Positions 24,378 to 43,592 of a stretch of DNA of 64,000 bases are shown here, one piece after another. Every line of letters begins with the position of its first letter. Position 1 is the first letter of the stretch. Below the pieces are notes generated by a model. The model was not told the origin of the DNA and searched no databases. It worked only from the letters and a program-made list of their open reading frames with translations. Both the position numbers and the translations under genes were made by a program. The stretch spans positions 75,206,001 through 75,270,000 of the forward strand of contig NC_086382.1 of assembly GCF_036588685.1 (NCBI RefSeq), written 5' to 3'. This DNA comes from Mytilus trossulus. Lineage: Eukaryota.

Positions 24378-25652
24378 TGTCACTGGCATGTTAGACAAAT
24401 GTAAAATTATTCTGAATATTAATAAGTAAAACAAAACATAAGTTATTCGACTTTTACAGATCCAAGTCGATGTATTTACGTATTCTTGACACAGAATTTT
24501 GTGTTGTTTGAAGGTCAGACGGTACGCCAATATTTTTTCAATGATTCAAAACGAATAATAAAATAAATGAAATAGTAATTAAGGATGCATATCTCTAACA
24601 AATAACTATTGTATAACGTTGCTGTAATGAATACAAGCGACCGACAAAAAAGAGGTTGGAGATGTAGCTAGAGCTTTATAAATCTCACTGACTTGAAGCA
24701 GTTGGTACTAGAGGTTTTTCTTATCGATTCCTTACATAAAGTTTATCCCATTGTTTTAGGGGACTCGGAGTTCTATTTTCATAATGTCTATTGTTAACCT
24801 TATTTGTAAGATATAGGTAATTAATGCATTTGTATTTAGATGTTGATGTTAATTATTTGTATTCTAAATTCTTCTGTCTATATTAAATGTTTTCCTAAAG
24901 CACATGTCATGCGTAAATGAGATTTTATATTACCCAGCTTTACCAGATTGTTCATATGAAAGTACGGATTAAGATCAGTCCATGTAGACCAGAAACCTGA
25001 TATTTAGAGGGCATATTCAGATAGGGACTTTAACAGGTATTAAATTATTGTTCTCTATCCAATTTAACGTGCTCTTTTCGACTGCTAATTATTTACATAT
25101 ATTGCTTATCAAATCTCACCCGTTATTTAGAGAAGTTAATGATGATTAGATATCTGGCATAACTGATAGTGTATTCCAAACTTTTATTGATGTACATGTA
25201 TATTCAAGTCATTCAAAATATATACTAGTATTGGAAGGGGATGAACAGAGGTCTCCTTTATTTTTCTTTCTATTGTTTGACAAACGTCCACTAGAAAGTC
25301 GGAAGGACTTTGTGATGATGTCACCATGGTTTGTTTTTATAAGTAATTTGTTTGCTGTCTCATTAACATCATTCCAACAGGTACTGGTATTCTCTAAGAA
25401 CTCTTAAAGATTATGTAAATATATTTTATTAAAAAATTCTCTATATATAACAACGAGAAATAAAACGACAAATACAAATGACCTCGGATATAAAAAGTCT
25501 ATTAAACAGGCATACATTGTATGTTACACCCATAACCAAACATTCAAGGCCAAAACTCACACAATCATACCATATTACGCGTGAAATAAAAATGATTAAG
25601 CAGTTATTGCATCCGACATCTATGGTAAATAAATGCTAATACAGTGCAAGAA

Positions 25653-27752
25653 TATAATCTACATCCAGCACGCCATATCTCTGGTATTTAAAGACTCGTA
25701 CACGTTCAGACTCTACTTTCACCACCATACCCGTATTATAAAAAAGACTAATACAGATTGTTATTTTCGGGGTCGTTTTAGTCTCTTGTTGTTGTCCAAC
25801 TGACAATTATACCAAATCCTCGTTTTAATATCTCTGATTTACATCAACCACCATACCCATAAAATAAAAAGGCAAATACAGATCTATAACGTATATTCCC
25901 CCATACCCGTGGAGTATATAGCCTGATACATATCTATAATATACATCCACCACCATAACCGTGGTATATAAACACTAATACCAGTCTATAACCTACATCC
26001 ACCACCATACCCGTGGTTGTATATAAAGACTAATACCAGTCTATAATCTACATCCACCACCATACCCGTGGTTTATTAAAACGTATACCGGTCTATAATC
26101 TACATCCACCACTATACCCGTGGTTTATAAAGACAAACACCGGTCTATTATCTACATCCACCACCATACCAGTGGTATATAAAGACTAGTAATACCGGTC
26201 TATAATCTACATCCACCACCATACCCGTGGTATATAAAGACTAATACCGGTCTATAATCTGCATCCACCACCATACCCGTGGTTTATGAAGACTAATACC
26301 GGTCTATAATCTACATCTACCACCATACCCGTGGTATATAAAGACTAATACCAGTCTATAATCTACATCCATCACCATACCCGTGGTATAAAAAGACTAA
26401 TACCGGTCTATAATCTACATCTACCACCATACCCGTGGTATATAAAGACTAATTCCGGTCTATAATCTACATCCACCACCATACCCGTGGTATAAAAAGA
26501 TTAATACCGGTCTATAATCTACATCCATCACCATTCCCGTGGTATATAAAGACTAATACCGGTCTATAATCTACATCCACCACCATACCCGTGGTATATA
26601 CAGACTAATACCGGTCTATAATCTACATCCACCACCATACCCGTGGTATATAATGACTAATACCGATCTATTATGTACATCCACCACCATACCCGTGGTA
26701 TAAAAAGACTAATACCGGTCTATAATCTACATCCATCACCATACCCGTGGTATATAAAGACTAATACCGGTCTATAACCTACATCCACCACCATACCCGT
26801 GGTTTATAAAGACAAATACCGGTCTATAATCTACATCCATCACCATACCCGTGGTATAAAAAGACTAATACAAGTCTATAATCTACATCCACCACCATAC
26901 CCGTGGTATATAAAGACTAATACCGTTCTATAATCTACATCCATCACCATACCCGTGGTATATAAAGACTAATACCGGTCTATAATCTACATCCACCACC
27001 ATACCAGTGGTATATAAAGACTAATACCGGTCTATAATCTACATCCACCACCATACCAGTGGTATATAAAGACTAATACCGGTCTATAATCTACATCCAC
27101 CACCATACCCGTGGTATATAAAGACTAATACCGGTCTATAATCTACATCCATCACCATACCCGTGGTATATAAAGACTAATACCGGTCTATAATCTACAT
27201 CCACCACCATACCAGTGGTATATAAAGACTAATACCGGTCTATAATCTACATCCACCACCATACCCATGGAATATAAAGACTAATACAAGTCTATAATCT
27301 GCATCCACCACCATACCAGTGGTTTATAAAGACAAATACCGGTCTATAATCTACATCTACCACCATACCCGTGGTATATAAAGACTAATACCAGTCTATA
27401 ATCTACATCCATCACCATACCCGTGGTATAAAAAGACTAATACCGGTCTATAATCCTCATCCACCACCATACCCGTGGTATATACAGACAAATTCCGGTC
27501 TATAATCTACATCAATCACCATACCCGTGGTATATAATGACTAATACCGGTCTATAATCTACATCCACCACCATACTCGTGGTATATAAAGACTAATACC
27601 GGTCTATAATTTACATTCACCACCATACCCGTGGTTTATAAAGACTAATATCGGTCTATAATGTACATTCACCACCATACCCGTTGATTATAAAGACTAA
27701 TACTGGTCTATAATCTACATTCACCACCATATCCGTGGTTTATAAAGACTAG
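25653..27752. repeat. 52-bp tandem satellite, block 1
   Basis: Unit TATAATCTACATCCACCACCATACCCGTGGTATATAAAGACTAATACCGGTC (26201, 26253, 26461...). About 35 regular units after 25930, with degenerate units at the left edge. Confidence 0.97.
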
Positions 27753-30484
27753 TGTTGGAAATCACGCATAGAATAGAACGTTTACGTTACGTGGCATTAT
27801 TCAATGTATATCCAACGTTGTGTACTTATGACGTTAATTTGTACTTTAGTCATCAATACAAATTCATACAGTTTAGACGTCTTTGTTATTGCATGCAGTT
27901 TTTAGTAAAATGATATTGGTACCGTGACCAGATGAAGATGACTACAAAGCTTAAATCTATTCGAGCGGGACACAGAAGCGCAGTTTCTAGGATGTTAAGA
28001 AGATTTGAGAAGAGAAGTGTAAAAGAAGAAAAACCGGAAGAGGACGAGCTGGAAACAATTTTGGATACATTAAAGGAAAAGCAAGATATTCTAAAGGATT
28101 TGGATAAGAACATTTTGGATAGTGTACAAGAGGAGGATATAGAGCAAGAGATACTTGACACAGATGAGTATAAATTTAATTTAGAGACGAAAATACGCAA
28201 AATTCGTAAACTTATTCACGTTAAAACATCAAATTTAAATGCAGCCGCTAGAAGTTTTTCGCCGCACAATGAGACACTACAACTCATTCAAAATGTTGAC
28301 CCCGTATATAACAGAAGAGATGACTCACAAAATACTGGCCACAATTTCACGTCTTTACGTTTAAATTCTAGCGTCAATAGCAGCAATTTTCATAAACTAC
28401 CGAAATTGAATTTACCTACGTTTGATGGAAACGTACTTGAATGGCAATCCTTTTGGGATTCTTTTGATTCCGCAATTCACACCAACAACACACTAACCGA
28501 AGTTCAAAAGTTCAACTACCTAAAATCTTTACTAGAAGGAGAAGCGACATATACCATAGACAGATTTGCTCTTACGCACACAAAGTACAACAAAGCTATT
28601 GAACTCATACATGAAAGATTCGGACAAAAGCATAAGATAATTCAATCGTACATGCAAGCACTACTAGACATACCCGCACCAAAGAATACGCCTTCACAAC
28701 TTAGAAGTTACTATGACAGAACAGAGAAATACATAAGAGAGCTTGCATCTCTTGGACAAGCCCAAGACTCGTACGGCTCGTTATTAGTACCAGTCATACT
28801 CAACAAAATGCCCAGTGAAATACGCAAAAACTTAAAACACGTGAGCAGGGTTCAACAGATTGGTATGTTGGTGATCTTAGGAGATCAATCTTTAAGGAGC
28901 TGGCCATTTTAGAGTCTGGTACAGAAACATTTGAAAGTCCTAGTACTACAGCTACCTTCTACACAAACACAAAATCTCGCGAAAACTGGCCAAAAACCAA
29001 TTCACCACAGAAATCTTATCAAATTAGCTGCGCATACTGCAAGGAACCCCACTTTTCGTCAGAATGTACTAAATATAAAGACCAGAATGACCGCATGAAA
29101 ATTGTTAAAGAAGATAGATTGTGCTTCAATTGCTTAGGGCGACACCGCGTAGTAGATTGCAAATCTATATCAAACTGCAAGAAATCTATATCAAACTGCA
29201 AGAAATATGATAGACGTCAACACACAAGCCTATGCAACAACGACCATGATAAAGAAACTACAAGTACAAGTAGTACAAGTACAATACACAAACACAACGC
29301 GGAGGAATCTGAGACTTCTGTTTTATATTCATCTTTAAATTGTGATCGCCCAAATGTTTTATTAAAGACAGCAATAGCACCAATAAGCTACAAAGACCAA
29401 ACGATTGATGCAAAGATCCTTTTTGACGAAGGCGCCACAAGGTCATTTATTACAAGACATTTAGCGGAGAAATTGGAGTTAAAAACCACAGGAAGTAAAG
29501 CAATCACGCTATCTAGATTTGGAGACGATAATGAGAGCAACTCTTTTGAACAGCTAAACAAAGCTACAGTGAAGATAAAAACTATATATGGCCAAGAAAT
29601 ACCAGTCGATGGTTTGATTGTACCTAAAATCGCCGCACCATTTAAGACAAACATTGAAACTGCAAAACAGTTATCATGTTTGCAAAACGTAAGCTTAGTT
29701 CACGCCGTTACGGTGGATACATCATTTGAAATTTGACTGCTTGTTGGAGCTGAACAATACTGGGATATTTTCGAGGATGATATCATTAGGGGCGAGGGAC
29801 CAACAGCAGTAAAGTCCAACTAGGAAACTTACTCTCGGGACACCTCAAAAGAACCAGTTCAAACAACGAAACACACTTTAGCACTACCAATGTAGGAGAA
29901 ACGGAAGAGACACACACTACCGAGGATACAACAGAGAGGAATACTATAAACATTGAACAAATTTCTACAATTATGGACACTTCAAGGACAAAACATAGAA
30001 CCAAGTAAATGAAACAGACAAACCAGCTTTAATGTGGACAAGAGACAGTAACAAAAACAAACGCTTTTACGAGGATTAACAAGGAATGGGAAAATCAAAA
30101 TCTCAGTTCAAAAAGCTTAACTTATAGCAGGAATTGGATTACAGGGAGAAACTTACAAGAAAAAAAAAGTATAATCTGACACTTCACTATAACAAACTGT
30201 GGTTAAAAGTTTTAATTTTAATGATGGACTTTAAAGTTTATTACATTTTATTATTCTAACGGAAAAACTTTAATTATTTTACAAGTTTTAAATTTTCACT
30301 TTTCGTGGGCCGGAGAATGTTGGAAATCACGCACAGAGGAGAACGTTAACGTAACGCGGCATTGTTGTATATCCAACGTTGTGTACTTATGACGCTATCT
30401 TGTACTTTAGTCATCAATACAAATTCATACAGTTTATAAGTCTTTGTTATTACATGCAGTTTTTAGTAAAACAACTTTACAATA
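27753..30484 (+). mobile_element. Short BEL/Pao LTR retrotransposon (gag-protease only)
   Basis: LTRs 27753-~27915 and 30318-30484 start TGTTGGAAATCACGCA. 5-bp TSD ACTAG (27748-27752, 30485-30489). tRNA-His-like PBS TGGTACCGTGACCAG (27917-27931). Purine tract 30307-30317. Confidence 0.9.
27932..29840 (+). pseudogene. gag: BEL/Pao gag plus aspartic protease, frameshifted
   Basis: KLPKLNLPTFDGNVLEWQSFWDSF (DUF1759-like); zinc knuckles CAYCKEPHFSSEC and CFNCLGRHRVVDC; protease ILFDEGATRSFI. No RT, RNase H or integrase follows. Confidence 0.85.
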
Positions 30485-30599
30485 ACTAGTAATACCGGTC
30501 TATAATCTACATCCACCACCATACCCGTAATATGTAAAGACTAATACCGGTATATAATCTACATCCACCACGTGCCATACCCGTGGATATAAAGACTAA

Positions 30600-31143
30600 T
30601 ACCTTCTTCACCTGCATATGGAATATACATTTCCCAACTTATTAGGTATCAAGAGCTTGCAGCTCCTATTCGGACTTTGTAAAACGTCACCACTGTCTGA
30701 GCAGAAAGTTGATGAACCAGGGGTATGTCAAAGAACGTCTCATCCTTCTTCTAAAAAAAGTTCACCGGACGATACCCAGAACTTGTTGATAAATATTCCG
30801 TATCAACTTTACAAATAATACAAGATGGTCTTGAAGTATAGATTTTGCGTACTGACGTCGGGTTATCATCTTAATAACGTGTTATAGTATTCTTTTATTT
30901 GTCTTTATTAATATTACTTGTACTGTTAAGTCAGTTTTTTTTATATATATTCTTTTGGAGTGCCCCTGTGGTTTTGTAAAACATCATACTTTGAACGACA
31001 AAATTATTTCATTTACTATTATTACTTTTACGTATTATCTTGAATACTATGAATGACAAAACTATTTTATTCATAAATCCTACATTTTTTGTAAAGTCTG
31101 TTTTTTATGATATACATTTGACGTGAAACTGTACTTATGTATG
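30600..31143 (+). mobile_element. Duplicated 5'-truncated Penelope-like RT C-terminal fragment
   Basis: Copy of 32061-32603 at offset about 1462, including the same satellite junction. Confidence 0.7.
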
Positions 31144-31266
31144 TTTAATTTCATGTTGTTTCTAAATATGTATTTTAATTTATGTTTTGTCTATTATCCA
31201 TTTTGTTTGTAATTCATATGCCTATAAGGGCCCTTTGATTAGGAAAAAAACATATTTGATTTTGAT

Positions 31267-32065
31267 TATAAAGACTAATACCGGTCTATTATCTACATCC
31301 ACCACCATACCCGTGGTATATAAAGAGGAATACCGGTCTATAATCTACATCCACCACCATACCCGTGGTTTATAAAGACTAATACCGGTCTATTATCTAC
31401 ATCTTCCACCATACCCGTGGTATATAAAGACTAATACCGGTCTATAATCTAAATCCACCCACATACCCGTGGTTTATAAAGACTAATACCGGTCTATAAT
31501 CTACATCCACCGCCATACCCGTGGTTTATAAAGACTAATACCGGTCTATAATCTAAATCCACCCACATACCCGTGGTTTATAAAGACTAATACCGGTCTA
31601 TAATCTACATCCACCACCATACCCGTGGTTTATAAAGACTAATACCGGTCTATTATCTACATCAACCACCATACCCGTGGTTTATAAAGACTAATACCGG
31701 TCTATAATCTAAATCCACCACCATACCCGTGGTTTATAAAGACTAATACCGGTCTATAATCTACAGCCGCCACCATACCCGTGGTATATAAAGAATTATT
31801 CCGGTCTATAATCTACATCCACCACCATACCCGTGGTATATAAAGGATAATACCGGTCTATAATCTACATCTACCACCATACCCGTGGTTTATGAAGACT
31901 AATACCGGTCTATAATCTACATCCACCACCATAACCGTGGTTTATAAAGACTTATTCCGGTCTATAATCTACATCCACCACCATACCCGTAATATGTAAA
32001 GACTAATACCGGTATATAATCTACATCCACCACGTGCCATACCCGTGGATATAAAGACTAATACC
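31267..32065. repeat. 52-bp satellite, middle block
   Basis: Same unit, about 15 copies. A further ~2 units lie at 30486-30603. Confidence 0.95.
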
Positions 32066-32786
32066 TTCTTCACCTGCATATGGAATATACATTTCCCAAC
32101 TTATTAGGTATTCAAGAGCATGCAGCTCCTATTCAGACTTTGTAAAACGTCACCACTGTCTGAGCAGAAAGTTGATGAACCAGGGGTATGTCAAAGAACG
32201 TCTCATCCTTTTTCTAAAAAAAGTTCACCGGACGATACCCAGAACTTGTTGATAAATATTCCGTATCAACTTTACAAATAATACAAGATGGTCTTGAAGT
32301 ATAGATTTTGCGTACTGACGTCGGGTTATCATATTAATAACGTGTTATAGTATTCTTTTATTTGTCTTTATTAATATTACTTGTACTGTTAAGTCAGTTT
32401 TTCATATATATTCTTTTTGGAGTGCCTCTGTGGTTGTGTAAAACATCATACTTTGAACGACAAAATTATTTCATTTACTATTATTACTTTTACGTATTAT
32501 CTTGAATACTATGAATGACAAAACTATTTTATTCATCAATCCTACATTTTCTGTTAAGTCTGTTTTTTATGATATACATTCGACGTGAAACTGTACTTAT
32601 GTATCCCGTCATACTTTGAACCAAACAACTATTTTATTTATTATTATTACTTTTACTGTAAAATCTGTTTTGTTATATCTACTTTAAGTGACTATACATG
32701 TACGTAGACGTCATACTTTGAACGACAAAATTACTTTTATGTCTATTTATGATATTTATCTATGATATTTATTTACACCTGTACAG
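32061..32786 (+). mobile_element. 5'-truncated Penelope-like retroelement fragment (RT C-terminus plus 3' region), left part
   Basis: Translates IPSSPAYGIYISQLIRYSRACSSYSDFVKRHHCLSRKLMNQGY...KK-(fs)-FTGRYPELVDKY...DGLEV*. It joins the satellite at shared ATACC. Confidence 0.65.
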
Positions 32787-33501
32787 CACAGCAGACGCAC
32801 CTGTTTTTCGCACGGAGATAATATTTTAGATATTATTGTTTAGTTCCACAAAGTTTTAGAAAACTTTTAGTATTGAGTTTTAATACACTGCACTCACATT
32901 TCCCTGTCATTTATTGCATTTTTCAAAGTCAAGTGATAAGTTAGATTCGACATTTTTTTTTTTTTTTTTTTTCCACACCTTGCCCGGGAAAAAATGGCCG
33001 CCATTATGTTTTAGAATTTTTTTATCCCTTTGCCTCTGCCTTACACATTTGTTCACTAGTAGAGCTAATAAAGCTTTTCTGGAATATAAATAGATAATTC
33101 TAGGAAAATATAAATCAGCAAAACAAAGAATAACATTGGCTTTTCAAACCGAAGTTAAATCCGTTACCCAACTGAGCCTTCCAACGGTGGGAATATCCAC
33201 GACGCGTTGGCTCTTTGGGTTTTAACTTACTGATTATAATTTTATTCATTTGCTTATCAACATTGGCATTTTACTTGTAAACGAAATACTCATTCACTGC
33301 TTGAACTTTGCTTGAACTCTGCAAACTTGCTTCGCATTATCATCATCATATATTATTGGCACATTCTCATAAAAACAACGATATAAAGATAACAACATTG
33401 CTTTTGGATCACCGTAGACTTGCTTTGCATCCTCATTAAATTTTATCACATTCGTCAATTCAATAGTAGTAAACTTCACATCATAGTTTCTCCAGATATT
33501 C

Positions 33502-34235
33502 ATGTCGGAAGGCAAATTAAAGAAATATCTAAAAAGACCACTACCTCCTATTATTGGTAATAAAAAACTTACACCTGTTATCCTAACTGACAGCAAAGGA
33601 TTCGGCCTATGGGATCAAGTGTCCACACAAACAGAGTTAGAAATCAGGTGGTGGTGTAAGTCTTCCCGTACATCACAGAAGGCTTTCACGTGGCTACAAC
33701 AAAACATAGCACAAAATATCGAACGTATAGGAAATATACATTTATACGTCTGGTTAGGCACCTGTGATCTTACAACATATGATAGTAAATTTATATCTAT
33801 CACAAGTGAGCAAAACATCATTCAGCAAATCACTGATATTTATCAAGAAATAGTTGAGTTTCTAAAATCATATCCAGGCTGCAAAATTACTTTTCTCGAA
33901 ATTCCGCCATATTCTATCATCGATTTCAACAGCTATAAAAAACACGATAATCCATCAAGCTTCAAAAATCAGGAGGAACAATTAATCAAAAACGTGCAGG
34001 AATTAAATAACAACATCCGTTATATCAACTCTACTTAAGACATTTTATCACCTAATTTTGCCATTGATATCAACCATCACCACCAAGAAAAAACGTCAAA
34101 GTCTAAAAAGCTAACCCTCAGAGACAACTATATGTTCAAACTATATACAGGGACGGAATCCATCCTAAACCAGCATTGTCGAAAGTTTGGCTAAAGAAAC
34201 TGGCAACGCAGATACAAAGACAGTGCTGGGGTTAA
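33502..34235 (+). pseudogene. SGNH/GDSL esterase-like ORF of the LINE (one stop, one frameshift)
   Basis: Block I ILTDS, block III WLGTCD, and block V DGIHP at 34152 after the stop at 34038 and a frameshift. Ends RQCWG* at 34235. Confidence 0.75.
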
Positions 34236-34705
34236 TATCATAGACAACGGTGGGAATATCCACGACGTGCTCCCTGGTTCAACCTCTGCATCTGCAAGTT
34301 TTCTCAATCTCAGCTTAATCCGACAACCCATTGAGCCTTCCAACGGTGGGAATATCCACGACGCGTTGGCTCCTTGGGCATTAGGTTATATGTGTACACT
34401 TATTTTCATCTCATATTCATTTATGTTATACCAACCTATTCCATAACTTGAACCCTTGCGTCTCATCTTCCTGCTTTATATAATCTCATATATATCTGCC
34501 TCCAGCATATAATCTTCGCTTAACTACATATATTACTTGGCTACAACATTCTGCTTTACCGCATCATACTTGCTTATATAACATAGAATTTTACATCAAC
34601 AAATACTGGTACATTAAAATCATCTTTGTCATACAATCATTAGAGTGGCAACATTCTATTGCACACCACCTCACCTTTGTAGTCGGATCACACTATCATT
34701 CAATT

Positions 34706-36579
34706 ATGGCCGCACCAAGTGTTCCAACAAGACGGATAACTCGCATGAACTCTGGCAACAATCGCAAACCCATTATACAAAGACTACATACATGTACTAG
34801 ACAAAAACAAAGCCATTCACAGGAAAAATGATGCATGCTCAAAATCGCACATCGAATCCACCATGAAGCCTGGCAACAATTTGGTATTAGAATTTAGTAC
34901 AGCAGCATATGAGCTTGCCAGACTTGGTCTAAACAAAATGATAGACAATTCCACACAATAGTTTGGCCTAATTAGACACAGTGAGGAAAATCTGGACGCC
35001 AATGTTGACTCATGTATCAGTCTATAACCGAAAAAATGACAATACCCAGGGCAAAACTCTAAAATTTGTTATAAATCTTTATCATACCAGCTCAAGAATG
35101 GTCATTAATGGCTCAAGAGTAGATCTTTACATGGCTGAAATTCATGATAAATTATGCGACGAGCTTGCTATAAATGGTCACATGCTGTCAATTCTTAACG
35201 ACAACATCGCTTCAACTATTTCAACGTCAAATGGAGTGGGCGCAGATCAAAACCTTCCGGCAGCTAACATAATCTGTCGAGACAATATTGCTGATTTAGC
35301 CATTGAATTTAGGGATGATGAATGTCAAGATTCTAAACATGATGATATAGACATTTGTCCAATTTGCAACACAACCTCACTTCTAGACACTATTGAATGC
35401 ACTGAGTGCTCTTTATGGATTCATTATCATTGTGCTGGATTATCGCAATCGTCTGTTGATGCCTTAAATGCACTACCATTCATATGCTCTCTGTGTACTG
35501 ACAATATGTTGTATCAGGTTGACTCGTCAGCTTGTGACAGATTTCAAACTCAACAAATGGTACCATGTTCTTCTGTCTTGGTCAATGACAATAACGTAGA
35601 GGCCTCTCCGCCAATCTATGAAGCGAGTGACAATGAAGAGACAATTGTAAAAGAAATATTTATCCCACATGCTACACATGATCAGAGATCAAAGATCAAC
35701 TCCACTGTGAACTCGTCATCTAAAGGAAATGAAAATAGTCCTCAAACTCCTCCCACTTCTGAACAACCATCAACAGAGAATTTACAGAGAAAGGCAAAAC
35801 GTCAACCTCCTAAAGCAGCAAAATCAAAAAACATAAACATTGAAGACAAAGCATATATTATCAAGCTAGAAAATGAGATAAATAAGCTAAAATCAACTAT
35901 AGAACTTCAGAATACCCTCAAAAGCTTGCAAGAACAGCAACAATCATCATCTTTCAGTGCAAACAATATTCAACAATCCTCTCTGCCAAATCCGCAAACG
36001 TCAAATATTGGTAGCTCAAACATAGACGACCAGAGAATAAGAATGCTTGAGTTTCAAATAATGCAAAACATGTCAATGAACAACATGCTTGCTAACCAAC
36101 AAATGCAAATGATGATGCAACAACAACAGCTAATGCAGCAATCTTTTCTTCATTCCACTACTGGTTTCTCTACTTATCCTCACATGGCAACTCCAAGGCA
36201 TATTCCACCTCCTCCTGGGTATGTGCCAATTGTAATACCAAATTCAGTTCCAAATGGTAGATATGCTACTCCTGGGGTCTCGTATCATCACCCCCAATAT
36301 TATCGACATTTCCAGCCTCCTCCATATCCACAGTTTAATGCTCCGCAAAATCAACAACATCAGAATGTATATCAATCTTACAATAGCCAGCATATTCAAA
36401 GGGACTCGAGAGTAAACTTGCCACAACCTAATCCGACAGCGTCTCAGACAGACAGGCGCCATAGGCCACAGCAAAGTAAGAATCAGAACAAAAGTCAAAT
36501 TCCTCCTAGGCATCATAATAGCAATAGACATCAAATTCCCAAAGAAGTAATAACAAAACATAGGCATCAGGGAAAATGA
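34706..36579 (+). pseudogene. LINE ORF1 with PHD finger, coiled coil and Q/P-rich tail (5' frameshifts)
   Basis: CPIC...IECTECSLWIHYHC...FICSLC (C4HC3) and YIIKLENEINKLKSTIELQ. Probable start ATG at 34706, upstream of the tracked ORF. Confidence 0.8.
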
Positions 36580-37400
36580 GAACCTGACACATATACATCA
36601 AATGCAGAGTAAAGAGGGTTCTCCACTATTTAACTCGCCGAGCGATATCCCATGTGATTTCTCTGCAGTCTTATCTCCTCATGTTGGCTAACGTCCTATG
36701 CAAACCATATCGTCCTCAAACTACGTATACCCTCTTCAACCAGATGTAACAACAGTTGTAACCGACAGGGTCTGTTTCTGAACCTGTAACATCTAACAAC
36801 TCTTGTTTAGGGATCATCCAAAACGACATACCACCCGATCTAGGACTAAGCGAAGACCGGCAAAATCACCATCTCTAAAACCAACTTCTCATATTAATGC
36901 TGAAGAACATCTTAGATTAACAACAATTAATATGAAAGGGAAGGGAAATGCATTATTTATAAACTCACTAGAATCATCTTCTGACATTATTTGTATCCAA
37001 GAACATTGGTTATATGAATTTCAAAAACAATCATTATGTAATGTTCTACTAAATATGGACTAGATGTAGTGATACAAATGAGGAAATTTCGAATTTTAAC
37101 CGGCCAAGAGGCAAAGGTGGTGTTGCAATAGCTTGGAAAAGATTCTTGACTCCATCCATTTGTGAAATACCATCGGGAAACAACAGGATAATTGCAATTG
37201 AGCTGAAACCACCAATGAAGATCTGCATCATTTGTGTATACATGCCTACAAATAATTCTGGGGACTCATATTTAGAATACACAGAGTGTTTTGATGTTAT
37301 TAGCTCTCTTCGAAAAATGTACTCAGTATCGCATAGAATCGTCATTATTGGAGACTGCAATGGAACATTAAAACAGCCTAGAAACTACAACAAACATGAT

Positions 37401-39357
37401 GGGATAAGGAAACTTAATATAAGTCATTGTCAACTCAGAAATAATGCTAGCAACCTTAAATCTCATTTATTTAATCAGTTCTTATCTGAGAACACTTTTT
37501 GCACAAACTGTAACCATCCTGTTGAGGATAACAAACATTTCTTTTTTATTTGCCCTAAGTATAATGATGTAAGACAGATCCTTCTTGATTCCATTTACTC
37601 CATTGTTGATAATGTTGACATAAATATTGAATTACTACTTTTTGGAAACAGATTATTATCATATGATATGAATATTGCTATTTTTAAATCTGTTCAGAAA
37701 TATATCAGTGACACTCAACGTTTTGTTTGAAACTTACTTAATTTTTGTTTCATCTAGTCTTATTTTTTATTTTTTTATTTTTTTTCCTACACTCCAACGT
37801 TAATTCATTTATTCCACTAAGCAAGCTTATTGTCTCCTTCAAGCCATATATATATTTCTAATGACTTATAAAGGATATTTGCATGTTTCAAGGTAATTTA
37901 AATAACTGATGATTAATTGCCTATATATTTAGGTCTTTCCACTTTTCTGTGGAAAGACCTATTGTTTTTCTTCTGATTATTTTTTTTTTTTTTTTTTTTC
38001 TTCCGCCTAATTTTGTTCTTGCGATAAACATTTGTTTCGCAATATGTCGCTTAGATATTTTGTATATGATATCGAACAGTTTATGCGCTTTTGAAATTTA
38101 CCCTGTGTAAATGAATACTTTTCTTTGTAGGAGTTATCTCCCCAAACACTGTTTTCCTTGTTAGCGCATCTCCTTCGCAACCGTAAAAGATTATGACAAA
38201 TTTATTTTACAAAATTGCTCGTTATATCCTTCGCATGATTTGTCCTATTTTGACCGAAGCGATATGACCGCTCCATATGAGAGTTATTTCCCCTTATGCA
38301 TCTGATATAAGTGATATGAATTTCTATCTTATAAATCATAAGTGATAGAGACCTAGGATCTTTTGATTTGAGGTCCTTGGTCCCAAAAAATGAAAATTAG
38401 GTCAAGGTCAAAGGTCAAGGTCATATTCTAATATTTGAATTTGGCTTATTTTCACTTATATCCAAAGACTGTATAAGATATCAATAAATTATTTTTACTA
38501 AATTGTTAGTTGCGACATGTCGTAAGATGTAAATTTTGATTGCAAGCGTACGTTGAATGTAAAAGGGAGTTTTCTCGACTCTTGTATTTAAAAATACGCG
38601 TTATGTGATATAACTCATTAACTAAATATAATTGAGACCTATGGTCTTTGGTTTGAGGTCCTTGGTTTATGACCTTGAAATTGATCTCAAGGTCATAGCT
38701 TAATTTGACGTTCTAGATTTTGACCTTTGCTTTTATTCTATATGTATACATGATAAAGATATACAACTTTTAGAAAAAGGAATCAAACCATTTAACCTTG
38801 AAAAAAACAACCGGAAGTGAACTTTTGTAAACCGGAAGTAGCTATTTTTTTGTACTTTATTAATATAAAAGTATATAGAACCAGATATTTTTGGAACCAG
38901 GGTCAAGTAAATATTCAAATATAATCGGAAGTAACATTTTTCAAACCGGAAGTAACAAATTATCTCCCTTATTTAAAAAAAATGTATGAAAACAATATAT
39001 TTTTGGAATCAGCTTACTAGGAGCTATCATTTGACGATTGGAATGACATTTTAAACTTAGTTTCACAACTTTTCATATCAAAATACATTGTTTTGATGGA
39101 AAGACCTTCAATTGTTCTCTGAACAATTGGTTTTTAATTATTTATACTTTGCATTTATTAAGTAACACTGCTAACATATTTTGCTCGTGTGTGCTCACAA
39201 GTAGCATGCATGTTCCACTAAATTGCATTATTTTAAATACAGTTGTTGTAATTGAATCATACCTTGTACATGTATTATGGAGAGAGCTTATATAGGCTGT
39301 GCCTGTTGCTCAATCCTTTTCATATCTTAATGAAAATATGTTTAAAATTAAATCAAA
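37401..39357 (+). mobile_element. 5'-truncated CR1-like LINE inserted into ORF2
   Basis: 12-bp TSD AACAAACATGAT (37389-37400, 39358-39369). Encodes an ORF2 C-terminus (CTNC...EDNKHFFFIC...LLFGN...YISDTQRF*) plus a 3' UTR. Confidence 0.85.
37928..39135 (+). mobile_element. Helentron-associated (HINE/DINE-1-like) element
   Basis: 5' subTIR AGGTCTTTCCA (37931-37941) with adjacent inverted copy (37950-37960) and a T-run. 3' subTIR TGGAAAGACCT (39097-39107), hairpin CAATTGTTC-TCT-GAACAATTG (39109-39129), then poly-T. Confidence 0.85.
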
Positions 39358-42300
39358 AACAAACATGATTTACTTCTGCAAGCCTTTGTTCATGAAATGA
39401 ATTTTCAATCTTATCGATCAGAGAAATCAACTTTTTTTCATCATTCTGGATTGTCAACCTCTCAAATTAATTATATCTTGCACAATGCCACAAATGCTTT
39501 TCTTTAGGACTATAAGATCCATGACCAATGTCATTTCAATACATCAAGCCACATTGCCGTGAGTGCAAAAATGAATGTCAAATCAAAACCACTGAATAAA
39601 GCAATCAAATCAGGCTATATCAGTAAATTCAAACTGCAGTGGAAAGATATAGATAATGAAACATATCATAATCATATCAGTAATGAACTCTCTCAGCATA
39701 ATATTGAAAATCACTCAATAGAAGAAATCATGAACTTTCTATGCAACTGTCTCAAAAAAGCTGCTACAGCTGCTGTACCATCAAAGATCATCAAATTAAA
39801 AGGTCCACATTTCAAAGCATCTCCAACCACTCTTATGCTGCTCAAAACTAGTAAAGAAAAATATCAACTCTGGAAATCTCATGGCAAGAAAAATGATCAT
39901 CTTAAAACAGACAAAATTCTGGCTCAACGAAATCTTCGCAAACAATTCCGAAAGGAACAGTATATGTATAGAACCCAATTCTACAATGAACTAATAGACA
40001 ATCCTAGCAATGATATGTTTCATTATCTCATTCGTCGCAACAGAGGCTCCAAAAATAAAGATGCGATCTGTATAATAGAAAATGGTGAGCACCACTACTC
40101 TGCAAAGGACCAAACAAATAGCTTCTCTAGATACTTTGAGGACTTAGCTGTTCCGAAAGACAACGGTTATGATCCAGAATTTTTAGATCTCTGCAATATC
40201 CGGCATAACATATTTGATGAACTCTGCAAACAAAACAGCGACGAACCACAATTTAGTGCTCAAAATATCTGTGATGCAATCAAACAGCTACATTCTGGCA
40301 AGGCAACAGATGAACTAGGTCTTGCTGCTGAGCATTTTAAAAACTCACCAACAACAGTTACTCATTTTCTTACTAACTGTTTCAATAACATTTTCATCAA
40401 TCATCATATACCTGATATCTTTAAATCTGGTATCGTAACACATGTGCTCAAAAAAGGGAAAAATCCATTATTAATGGACAACTATAGAGGAATTGCCGTT
40501 ACACCTGTCATCTCAAAACTCTTCGAATGTACCATACTACCTCGCTTAACCTTGAATTTTGATCAGTCATCTCTACAGTTCGGCTTCACAAAAGGGTTGT
40601 CGATGGTTATGGCCAGTCGCATTATCACTGAAGCTAGGGCAGAAGTAAAATTAGTCACAATGGAACCTTTATTTCTTATTACTGTGGACAGCCAAAAGGC
40701 CTTCGACGTCGCAGATCACATCATATTATTATATGTGTTATATGACCATACTCAGAATCATTCTCTCTGGTCAATAGTGAAAATGTTTTACTCAGGGCTA
40801 GTTTCAAGAGTCAAATGGAAGAGAAATGTTAGTAACAGCTTTAATATTCATCAGGGAGTCCGACAAGGAGGCATTCTTTCACCTTTTCTATATAAAGTCT
40901 ATGTAAACAATCTGCTTGAGGATCTTAAATCGCACAGTCTTGGTCTTAAAATTGGCACAAATTATGTTGGCTGCCCAACTTGTGCGGACGACATATCCTT
41001 CTTGAGCAATAATCATCAGGAATTACAATGCATGCTCTCTGTTGCAACTCATCATGCCAGACAGTCAAGAGTAACAATAAATCCTACAAAAACTAAAGCT
41101 GTCATCCTCAACAAACCGAAAAAGATAAGCAAGTCCGATTTAAACTGGACCCTAGGCAACACCCTTGTTTATCCATCGGAAGACACAACACATCTTGGCT
41201 TAATAAGAGCAGAATTGAAGGAAAACAATCTAAATATTGATGCACGCATCAGCATTGCCAGACGTACTCTTTACTCTCTAATGAATACTGGTTTACATGG
41301 AACAAATGGACTAAACCCACAGACATCTTACAAGATATATCAGAGCTATGTTATTCCCCGATTGCTATATGGAATGGAAATACTCCCTCTTAACCAATGC
41401 CAACTTGGTATTTTGGCACGCTTTCACACAAAAACATTGCGAAATATTCACTCTCTACCTACACGAACAGCCACTGGATTAGTATTTATGCTGTTGGGAG
41501 CGCTAACAATTGAGGCAGAAATACATAAAAGGCAACTATCATTTCTATACAGTGTTCTCTCATGTAACAATTCAACAATCCAAGGTTTAGTTGACAGACA
41601 AGTCATTATGAATATTGATAACAATCTCAGCTTCTTCTGTAAGGTCACAGGTGTACTAACTGTATACGATCTGCCAAGTATATCTACACTTAGTCAAAAT
41701 TTACCGTCAAAATTAAAATGGAAAGCAACAGTTAAAATAGCAATTCAGGATTATTGGACTAAAACTCTCATTAAAGAAATAGAAACAAAGTCCTCATTAA
41801 CATACTTGGACAAAACCATGTTAAGAATTGGGCATACACATCCGGTTTGGACAAGTCTTTCCTCAACTGTATCAGATGTTAAAAAGGGAGCGATAAAAGT
41901 TCGTCTATTAACTGGGACTTATATTCTTGAATCTCACAGATCTAAATTTAGTGGTGGCAAGGAATCGGCATTATGTAAATGCTGTGGAACATCAGATGAA
42001 GATATAATTCATTTCCTTCTATTGTGTCCGGCTCTACACAAGCAGAGAAAAGAAACATTTAGCAAACTCAAGTCTTATGTGATCTCAGTCATTGGCACGA
42101 AATATTGGTCTGAGAATTTTAAAGGACATTTGGATCTGATAAAACTTATTGTTGACAGCTCTTTTCTGCTGCCAATGCTTAGAAATTGGACTGAACTGGA
42201 CAAAATTCATCGATTGGCTACGGACATGTGTTATAGACTCCATGCTCAGCGTATATGGAAATTACAAGGAAAATAATATCTCTATACTCAAAGATAAATA

Positions 42301-42496: not shown

Positions 42497-42822
42497 TGAT
42501 ATTAAGATGATAGCACATTATTGACTGTTGTACCCCTATTTTTGACATTTTTACTCTTCGAGTATGTTTGTTTTGTTCATTCATCGTTGACAATGTAATG
42601 GAATATGATGCGACTGTCATAAAAGTGAGAGGTTTAGCTAGCTATAAAACCAGGTTCAATCCACCATTTTCTACATTAGAAAATGCTTGTACGAAGTCAG
42701 GAATATGACAGTTGTTATCCATTCGTTTTATGTGTTTGGACTTTTGATTTTGCCTTTTGATTTTGCCTTTTGATTTTTGATTTTCCTTTTTGAAAGTTTA
42801 GTATTTTTGTGTTTTTACTTTT
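42497..42822 (+). mobile_element. Interspersed repeat, probably the 3' remainder of the Penelope-like element interrupted at 32786
   Basis: A second copy lies at 10550-10770. The satellite resumes in register right after it. Confidence 0.55.
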
Positions 42823-43592
42823 TCTATAATCTACATCCACCACCATACCAGTGGCTTATAAAGACTAATACCGGTCTATAATCTACATCCACCACCATAC
42901 CCGTGGCTTATAAAGACTAATACCGGTCTATAATCTACGTCCACCACCAAACCCGTGGTTTAGAAATACTAATACCGGTCTATTATCTACATCCACCACC
43001 ATACCCGTGGATTATTAAGTTTAATACCGGTCTATAATCTACGTCCGTCATCATACCCGTGGCTTATAAAGACTAATACCGGTCTATAATCTACATCCAC
43101 CACCATACCCGTGGTTTATAAAGACTAATACCGGTATATAATCTACATCCACCACCATACCCTTGGTTTATAAAGACTAATACCGGTCTATTATCTACAT
43201 CCACCACCATACCCGTGGCTTATAATGACTACTACCGGTCTATAATCTACGTCCACCACCATACCCGTGGTTTATAAAGACTAATACCGGTCTATAATCT
43301 ACATCCACCACCATATCCATGGCTTATAAAGACTAATACCGGTATATAATCTACATCCACCACCATGCCCGTGGTATTTAAGGACTAATACCGGTCTATT
43401 ATCTACATCCACCACCATACCCGTTGTTTATTAAGACTAATACCGGTCTATTATCTACATCCACCACCATACCCGTGGTATATAAAGACTAATACCGGTC
43501 TATAATCTACATCCATCACCATACCCGTGGTGTATAAAGACAAATACCGGCCTTTTATCTACATCCACCACCATACCCATGGTATATAAAGA
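42823..43592. repeat. 52-bp satellite, last block
   Basis: Same unit, about 15 copies. Confidence 0.95.

Follow-up and report, generated by a model that had tools for sequence, protein, structure and literature searches.

What reads a hairpin that a LINE carries several times, almost unchanged, around its 5′ open reading frames (ORFs)? The question is raised by a 64,000-nucleotide stretch of Mytilus trossulus DNA (contig NC_086382.1, positions 75,206,001 to 75,270,000; here called the window), in which such an element lies on the + strand. Its probable 5′ end (32991 to 33005) was placed by a AAAATGGCCGCCATT motif right behind a poly(T) run and by contigs from other copies of the LINE, which start around 32993 to 33020. 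We take the AAAATGGCCGCCATT motif to be YY1-like, and from its sequence the site may have a promoter role. Downstream lies ORF0 (33502 to 34235), a stand-alone gene resembling SGNH/GDSL esterases, whose reading frame is cut by a TAA at 34036 and shifts near 34142; the named proteins nearest to it are from Mytilus (97% identity). ORF1 (34706 to 36579, 5′ part broken) joins a PHD finger to a Q/P/H/Y-rich tail, its PHD match (E value of 8e-5, 23 bits) lying slightly below the 24-bit cutoff. ORF2 (36870 to 42276, start approximate) encodes an endonuclease, a reverse transcriptase (RT), and a C-terminal zinc motif; it is broken and is split by ~2.1 kb of foreign DNA (about 37400 to 39500), the first part of which, up to 37730, is the zf-RVT-like 3′ end of a different LINE. 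Elsewhere in the window, a 52-bp tandem repeat forms three arrays (25620 to 27750, 31160 to 32140, and 42700 to 43590), and a duplication with a spacing of 1,462 nt joins 30482 to 31142 and 31944 to 32604.

The initial annotation had described two near-identical full hairpins and a third occurrence of their 23-nt core, and this description was borne out. The core occurs exactly three times in the window (33182, 34245, and 34341), always on the + strand, and was absent from 100 of 100 shuffled controls even when 3 mismatches were allowed. Copy 1 (33167 to 33219, core 33182 to 33204, + strand) lies in the ORF0 5′ leader, and copy 2 (34327 to 34378, core 34341 to 34363, + strand) lies in the ORF0-ORF1 spacer; both sit within a 77-nt repeat of 84% identity (33153 to 33229 and 34312 to 34388). 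The claimed distances of ~280 and 330 nt to the start codons were measured as 282 nt (ATG at 33502) and 327 nt (ATG at 34706), and the faint likeness reported for the sequence after the hairpins was recovered with a z score of 2.3, 7 of 300 shuffles being equally good. The third copy (34245 to 34267, + strand) consists of the core only, with a decayed lower stem; the duplex of its own flanks (−6.1 kcal/mol) was no more stable than those formed with 5 of 11 foreign flanks. It begins 9 nt past the TAA at 34233 to 34235, so that its spacing from the esterase stop was given about correctly, but this TAA ends the esterase only if the TAA at 34036 and the frameshift near 34142 are passed over.

Minimum folding energies (MFE) of the full, 53-nt copies were −21.4 and −22.1 kcal/mol (z scores of −3.1 and −2.7). 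Both the MFE structure and the comparative fold of the window copies pair CCCAA with UUGGG and GAGCC with GGCUC beneath a 5-by-5 internal loop; the CCAACG/CGUUGG stem drawn earlier is possible only in the window and is not a conserved pairing. The layout is not unique to the window insertion, since both of its hairpin sites are spanned by contigs from 4 of 4 DNA runs. No substitution fell within a hairpin among the 40 listed of 484 substitutions.

To follow the motif beyond the window, 50 of 63 ORF0 homologues were aligned, and 18 loci were fetched by protein alone, blind to the motif; 7 of the 18 had the window-like LINE layout. The window's hairpin type, designated type I (consensus core, C-R-R-Y-R-GUGG-N6-CCAC-R-A-C-G), was found in four related LINEs (L001, L005, L006, and L010) whose ORF0 proteins are 41 to 49% identical to the ORF0 protein P0001, giving 11 further copies. 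Among the same-clade ORF0-bearing loci (n = 7), these four have the motif, two (L003 and L009) have variant repeated hairpins at the places that type I occupies elsewhere, and in one (L004) neither type I nor a variant hairpin was detected. All 14 type I copies, from five elements including the window's, are on the sense strand, and 11 core positions are invariant among them. Between lineages, gapless identity was 57 to 87% in the core versus 18 to 40% in the 60-nt flanks. The consensus fold has a six-pair lower stem, a 5-by-5 internal loop (CRRYR/RACGN), an invariant GUGG/CCAC stem, and a variable hexaloop.

Changes on both sides were seen at all six lower-stem pairs, amounting to 21 cells versus 7.9 in shuffles (0 of 500 as high), a count inflated by the relatedness of the copies. 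Lower-stem pairing reached 85.7% in the true register versus 36 to 59% in slid registers. For 12 of 14 5′ flanks, the copy's own 3′ flank paired better than that of any other lineage (0 of 5,000 permutations as good; best of 24 arrangements with one copy per lineage), the exceptions being the window's third copy and the last copy of L010. The earlier description of a selected cis-element therefore stands: covariation and conservation in excess of the flanks, either of which might have been missing, were both found, and the motif is very probably a selected, structured element. The sense strand folds better than the antisense in just 8 of 14 type I copies, the two strands being about equal. Strand consistency and covariation, together with the strand bias of a second hairpin type described below, suggest that type I acts as RNA.

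Two published consensus sequences that did not enter model training extend the pattern. In a curated bivalve LINE library (PMC10294476, supplementary file 25), the first 400 nt of each consensus, a scope without spacers or 3′ UTRs, were compared by an 8-mer search; the full core occurred in LINE_M.edulis_286 and LINE_M.edulis_262 only. By eye, the former has a 7-bp lower stem in the same register ahead of the ORF0 start, and the latter has a 6-bp stem in the same register ahead of an ORF1 start with STAAYELA, as in the window. Both families, which match the window's ORF0 or ORF1 start, are Proto2 by their published labels (labels only), and we have accordingly not kept the "RTEX-like" label of the initial annotation. 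The sections of PMC10294476 at hand also point out Proto2/RTE-X discordances, and the PTCADD motif of the window RT is absent from the few RTEX rows of the published alignment.

The Rfam scan suggested earlier matched no known family. The region from 32900 to 34800 gave 3 weak matches (E values of 0.86 to 6.5), none credible for the hairpin, and 9 hairpin-bearing loci gave no gathering-level match in Rfam 15. The motif is absent from Rfam 15 and is thus an RNA family new to that database; a literature search with Repbase reports and subscription journals outside its scope found no published account of it. Type I was absent by pattern and by model from the symbiont assembly G001 (150 of 1,559 candidates scored). 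Eight exact core matches in viral contigs (leviviruses and phages) are about what chance predicts, and a single 26-nt plasmid match was likewise set aside as chance. The viral contigs held no ORF0 relative; one type II pattern match was seen there (L087).

Type I sites occur in the 5′ leader (window and L001), in the ORF0-ORF1 spacer (window, L005, L006, and L010), and within the 3′ part of ORF1 (twice in L005 and three times in L010), with 1 to 4 copies per element and 48 to >600 nt to the next start. The hairpin had been said to stand in front of each 5′ ORF; this fits the leader and spacer of the window, but L005 and L010 carry copies inside ORF1, and L001 has none before ORF1. Such free position and multiplicity would be more readily explained by a protein-binding tag than by promoter, reinitiation, or ribozyme activity. 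Among the four functions first offered, the RNP-binding site thus fits best, and no support was found for the other three.

A candidate for the binding protein is ORF0, which is about 243 amino acids long in intact relatives. The AlphaFold (AF2) model of P0001 had a pLDDT of 94.8, and its top Foldseek and VIA matches were GDSL/SGNH proteins (best Z of 17.0, to bacterial GDSL enzymes; root mean square deviation of 3.2 Å over 182 residues); as modeled, ORF0 has the SGNH fold. Of 50 ORF0 sequences, 48 retain S31, D217, and H220, so ORF0 may be just an enzyme. Block III reads GTCD where GxND is usual, with C88 in 50 of 50. Residues 190 to 211 form a lower-confidence loop right before the DGIH motif, with 30% K/R versus 14% elsewhere, an excess seen in every one of the 50 sequences, whose median pI is 9.5. 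A PDB sequence search with the ORF0 profile gave no matches. The OSK domain of Oskar matched the ORF0 model at rank 20 (Z of 14.5), which is not specially close, and no OSK family was among the best 25 of 32 Pfam families. The ZfL2-1 esterase (4C1B) was not among the fold matches listed, which is uninformative. A longer ORF0-type protein was seen once among 6,311 candidates, a slight indication from sequence that ORF0 normally stands alone.

Stand-alone ORF0 genes lie 5′ of gag or ORF1 in window-kind LINEs, CR1-like LINEs, Gypsy, and BEL/Pao elements (backbones called by motifs). This SGNH-ORF-first layout was noted at L007, L013 to L017, and L053 to L072 (Gypsy, BEL/Pao, CR1-like, and Proto2-labeled). 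The same literature search, with the same scope, found no published mention of a stand-alone SGNH ORF 5′ of gag or ORF1. The symbiont assemblies G001 and G371 gave at least 150 and 66 RT matches, respectively, and 19 and 7 ORF0 matches; both are bacterial assemblies heavily contaminated with host DNA, in the form of hundreds of eukaryotic transposon contigs.

Many stand-alone-ORF0 elements have repeated hairpins adjoining ORF0. Type II (A-U/A-U-G loop) comprises 26 copies in 9 ORF0 elements (7 CR1-like, 1 BEL/Pao, and L057). Its sense strand folds better in 20 of 23 copies, and its pair support is weak to modest (77% paired versus 73% when slid by +1). Type III was found in four Gypsy elements that form a 100/99 ORF0 clade, from the same two assemblies (G001 and G371). 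In the ORF0 tree (38 rows, about half without any typed hairpin), type I is confined to one 97/95 clade, and the BEL ORF0 forms a group with two CR1 ORF0s (98/98), the three sharing a hairpin subtype and having the most similar hairpins. L057 has an ORF2 31% identical to the window's, an ORF0 outside the type I clade, and a type II hairpin. Three or more hairpin types coexist within one assembly, and each of them goes with one ORF0 clade. Hairpin and ORF0 are neighbors, and co-descent alone could explain their matching trees.

Covariance models trained on the hairpins of ORF0 elements were applied to ORF0-less controls. Types I and II were absent from 40 of 40 same-clade ORF0-less contigs (best E values of 0.43 and 0.06), which were picked by similarity to the window ORF2 (27 to 53% identity), come from other assemblies and probably other hosts than the type I elements, and include 20 in which ORF1 starts at least 130 nt inside the contig. 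Type II was also absent from 39 of 39 other ORF0-less RT contigs (best E value of 0.21). Of the controls, 13 of 39 and 3 of 40 contigs were screened by covariance model only, and the model R1 screen excludes L088 to L126. One extra LINE match to type II, L082, is 5′ truncated and falls in the RT clade of ORF0-bearing CR1 elements. By eye, the published mussel CR1 families with ORF0 have different leaders, which are not type I.

Outside LINEs, type II lies 100 to 460 nt past the stop codon, always on the coding strand, in six ORF0-less DNA-transposon-like contigs (L073 to L076, L083, and L084): one is a MULE by Pfam, two are weak DUF6589 matches, and three are unnamed. L081, a BEL element without ORF0, also has it in its leader. 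The presence of type II in ORF0-less elements means that action in trans or a host protein is needed. Type II in the DNA-transposon-like 3′ UTRs often has a long paired lower stem; L073 (G001:C117) has three copies inside a longer shared module, and L076 is MULE plus OTU by Pfam. Pattern matches in G371 (L077 to L080) and model matches L085 and L086 fall within bacterial or coding sequence and were rejected as chance.

We tentatively favor the reading, drawn from the sequences, that the hairpins are a multicopy RNA docking tag bound by ORF0. The several hairpins on an element's transcript would serve as docking sites for a partner, which would be the element's own stand-alone SGNH protein, gripping through the basic loop. 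ORF0 would then load or route the hairpin-tagged RNA into the retrotransposition particle. ORF0 and hairpin together would form a cassette moved between LINE and LTR backbones, and the ORF0-less DNA transposons carrying type II would profit in trans; such profit would indicate a positive effect of docking. We infer action on RNA rather than on DNA, binding by a protein, and ORF0 as the binder; the least certain step is that this binding promotes RNP assembly or trafficking. A broader picture is possible though on balance doubtful: a portable bivalve module of an RNA-binding SGNH protein and its cognate hairpins that diversifies in specificity, passes between LINE, BEL/Pao, and Gypsy backbones, serves in trans those DNA transposons that have only the hairpin, in their 3′ UTR, and provides Rev/RRE-like or Oskar-like routing.

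The proposal has a model in known systems. In Rev/RRE, lambda N/boxB, and MS2 coat/operator, a basic protein encoded by the element reads a hairpin or internal loop in the element's own RNA. We use these as a working model for the ORF0-hairpin pair, which is predicted from sequence and has no sequence or fold relation to them. The OSK domain of Oskar, with the nanos and oskar 3′ UTRs, resembles ORF0 in its SGNH fold and basic surface, and OSK binds RNA, according to the consulted parts of PMC12247748 and PMC10792757; OSK has lost its catalytic triad and is fused to LOTUS, whereas ORF0 keeps S/D/H and stands alone. The esterase ORF1p proteins of ZfL2-1 and of CR1, L2, and RTEX elements are like ORF0 in having the SGNH fold, in keeping S/D/H, and in lying 5′ of the RT ORF (PMC3905857, available portions). 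Here, in contrast, the esterase is a separate ORF0 ahead of a complete PHD ORF1 or gag, has C for N in block III, and is accompanied by a repeated hairpin; the same portions of that paper describe no cognate RNA element. They report lipid binding, but no binding of oligo-A RNA, by the ZfL2-1 esterase, and they speculate that esterase ORF1p proteins target structured RNA via basic peptides. Rotifer LTR and Penelope-like elements also have GDSL ORFs in common, as ORF3, and the available text of PMC5408684, which reports this, mentions no hairpin.

Protein-binding stem-loops in retroelement RNA are already known; one that occurs in several copies and goes with a stand-alone SGNH gene in both LINE and LTR elements is a new form of them. 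The role of retrotransposon esterases and the recognition of their own RNA have so far been a matter of speculation (PMC3905857, available portions), and the motif provides a defined candidate ligand for them, along with several naturally differing specificity groups and controls that lack ORF0. If ORF0 binds, it would be the second case of an SGNH fold used on RNA, after Oskar, and would come with a set of possibly orthogonal protein-hairpin pairs.

The main rival, which we consider rather unlikely, is that a host RNA-binding protein reads the hairpin for localization, export, stabilization, or germline translation, that transposons exploit it, and that ORF0 is a mere neighbor. In its favor are the sense-strand type II copies in 3′ UTRs of unrelated ORF0-less DNA transposons and a type-II-like hairpin seen by eye 4 to 5 times in a CR1 family of another bivalve. 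It also has a precedent in the I-factor ILS, which is bound by Egl-BicD and of which two stem-loops per RNA are required (PMC13186709, accessible part). Like the hairpin, the ILS is a stem-loop of LINE RNA that may lie in coding sequence, and it works in pairs; the ILS and other Egl-BicD stem-loops have no sequence in common among themselves and have a host reader, whereas here an invariant GC-rich core tracks a gene of the element. Only the multicopy stem-loop layout is alike. Speaking against a host reader are the coexistence, within one assembly, of three or more hairpin types that each go with one ORF0 clade; the other, non-type-I leaders of mussel CR1 families that have ORF0 (by eye, from the published consensuses); and the absence of both types from ORF0-less LINE relatives. 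Were a host protein nevertheless the binder, the motif would point to a host RNA pathway on which unrelated classes of transposon draw.

Distinctly less probable is a translation element that brings ribosomes to ORF1 or ORF2 of the three-ORF RNA by internal entry or reinitiation. Copies do lie ahead of ORF1 in 4 of 5 elements and 250 to 750 nt before ORF2 in L005 and L010, and where ORF0 abuts the next ORF (L001 and L004) no copy lies in between. Against this, copies precede the first ORF or lie within ORF1, at 48 to >600 nt from the next start, and sister hairpins occupy 3′ UTRs with no ORF behind. In calicivirus TURBS, an invariant UGGGA core lies shortly upstream of an overlapping stop-start. 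UGGGA is present in 8 of 14 type I copies, a point in favor, but it is broken in the other 6, and no adjoining or overlapping stop-start was found, so that there is no TURBS signal.

We regard as improbable a DNA-level site, either an internal promoter or a dimeric transcription factor site (GTGG-N6-CCAC), driving subgenomic transcripts: the invariant part is indeed a spaced inverted repeat, and neither strand clearly folds better (sense ahead in 8 of 14 copies), but flanks that change in sequence yet stay complementary, and the single orientation of 14 of 14 copies, would be left unexplained. An unrecognized self-cleaving ribozyme is very improbable. Ribozymes are common in LINE leaders, and the hairpin has a core with an invariant internal loop; like the HDV-like, twister, and hammerhead ribozymes, it is a conserved structured RNA in a LINE 5′ region. 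It differs from them in lacking an Rfam match and in occurring in several copies per element, some inside ORF1, where cleavage would cut the template. It has just 11 invariant positions, and the hexaloop complement within 80 nt was at chance (3.9 nt versus 4.1 nt shuffled; 14 copies), giving no pseudoknot signal. Hardly credible is a neutral recent duplication unique to this insertion, as the initial annotation had considered, or a peptide repeat, for although the window copies are near-identical including the lower stem and their leaders are faintly alike, making duplication or conversion within the window subfamily likely, and although the ORF1 copies of L005 and L010 share one reading frame, the motif is conserved across other elements whose flanks cannot be aligned, both sites are present in contigs of 4 of 4 DNA runs, most copies are noncoding or not in that frame, and the invariant positions include would-be third codon positions.

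Several minor features were noted around ORF0. Rough home-made matrices found no consistent splice donor or acceptor there; the Gypsy elements L013 and L014 have strong splice-donor-like sites 13 to 19 nt ahead of the ORF0 start. Type III lies after ORF0 in L062, L063, L065, and L071 (Gypsy, divergent ORF0), where the copy includes a GGTAAGT donor-like site, and it recurs as repeats at the pol 3′ end in L062, L065, and L071. LINE_A.kagoshimensis_5 (CR1; PMC10294476, supplementary file 25) has 4 to 5 copies of a short ATTG-loop hairpin, type-II-like by eye, in its first 400 nt. Other lineage-specific repeated hairpins lie upstream of ORF0 in L059 and L060, at −95, +301, and +545 in L003, and at +171 to +314 in L009. 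An unpaired N-A-C 3′ of the upper stem recurs in many hairpins of several types, which may therefore belong to one superfamily.
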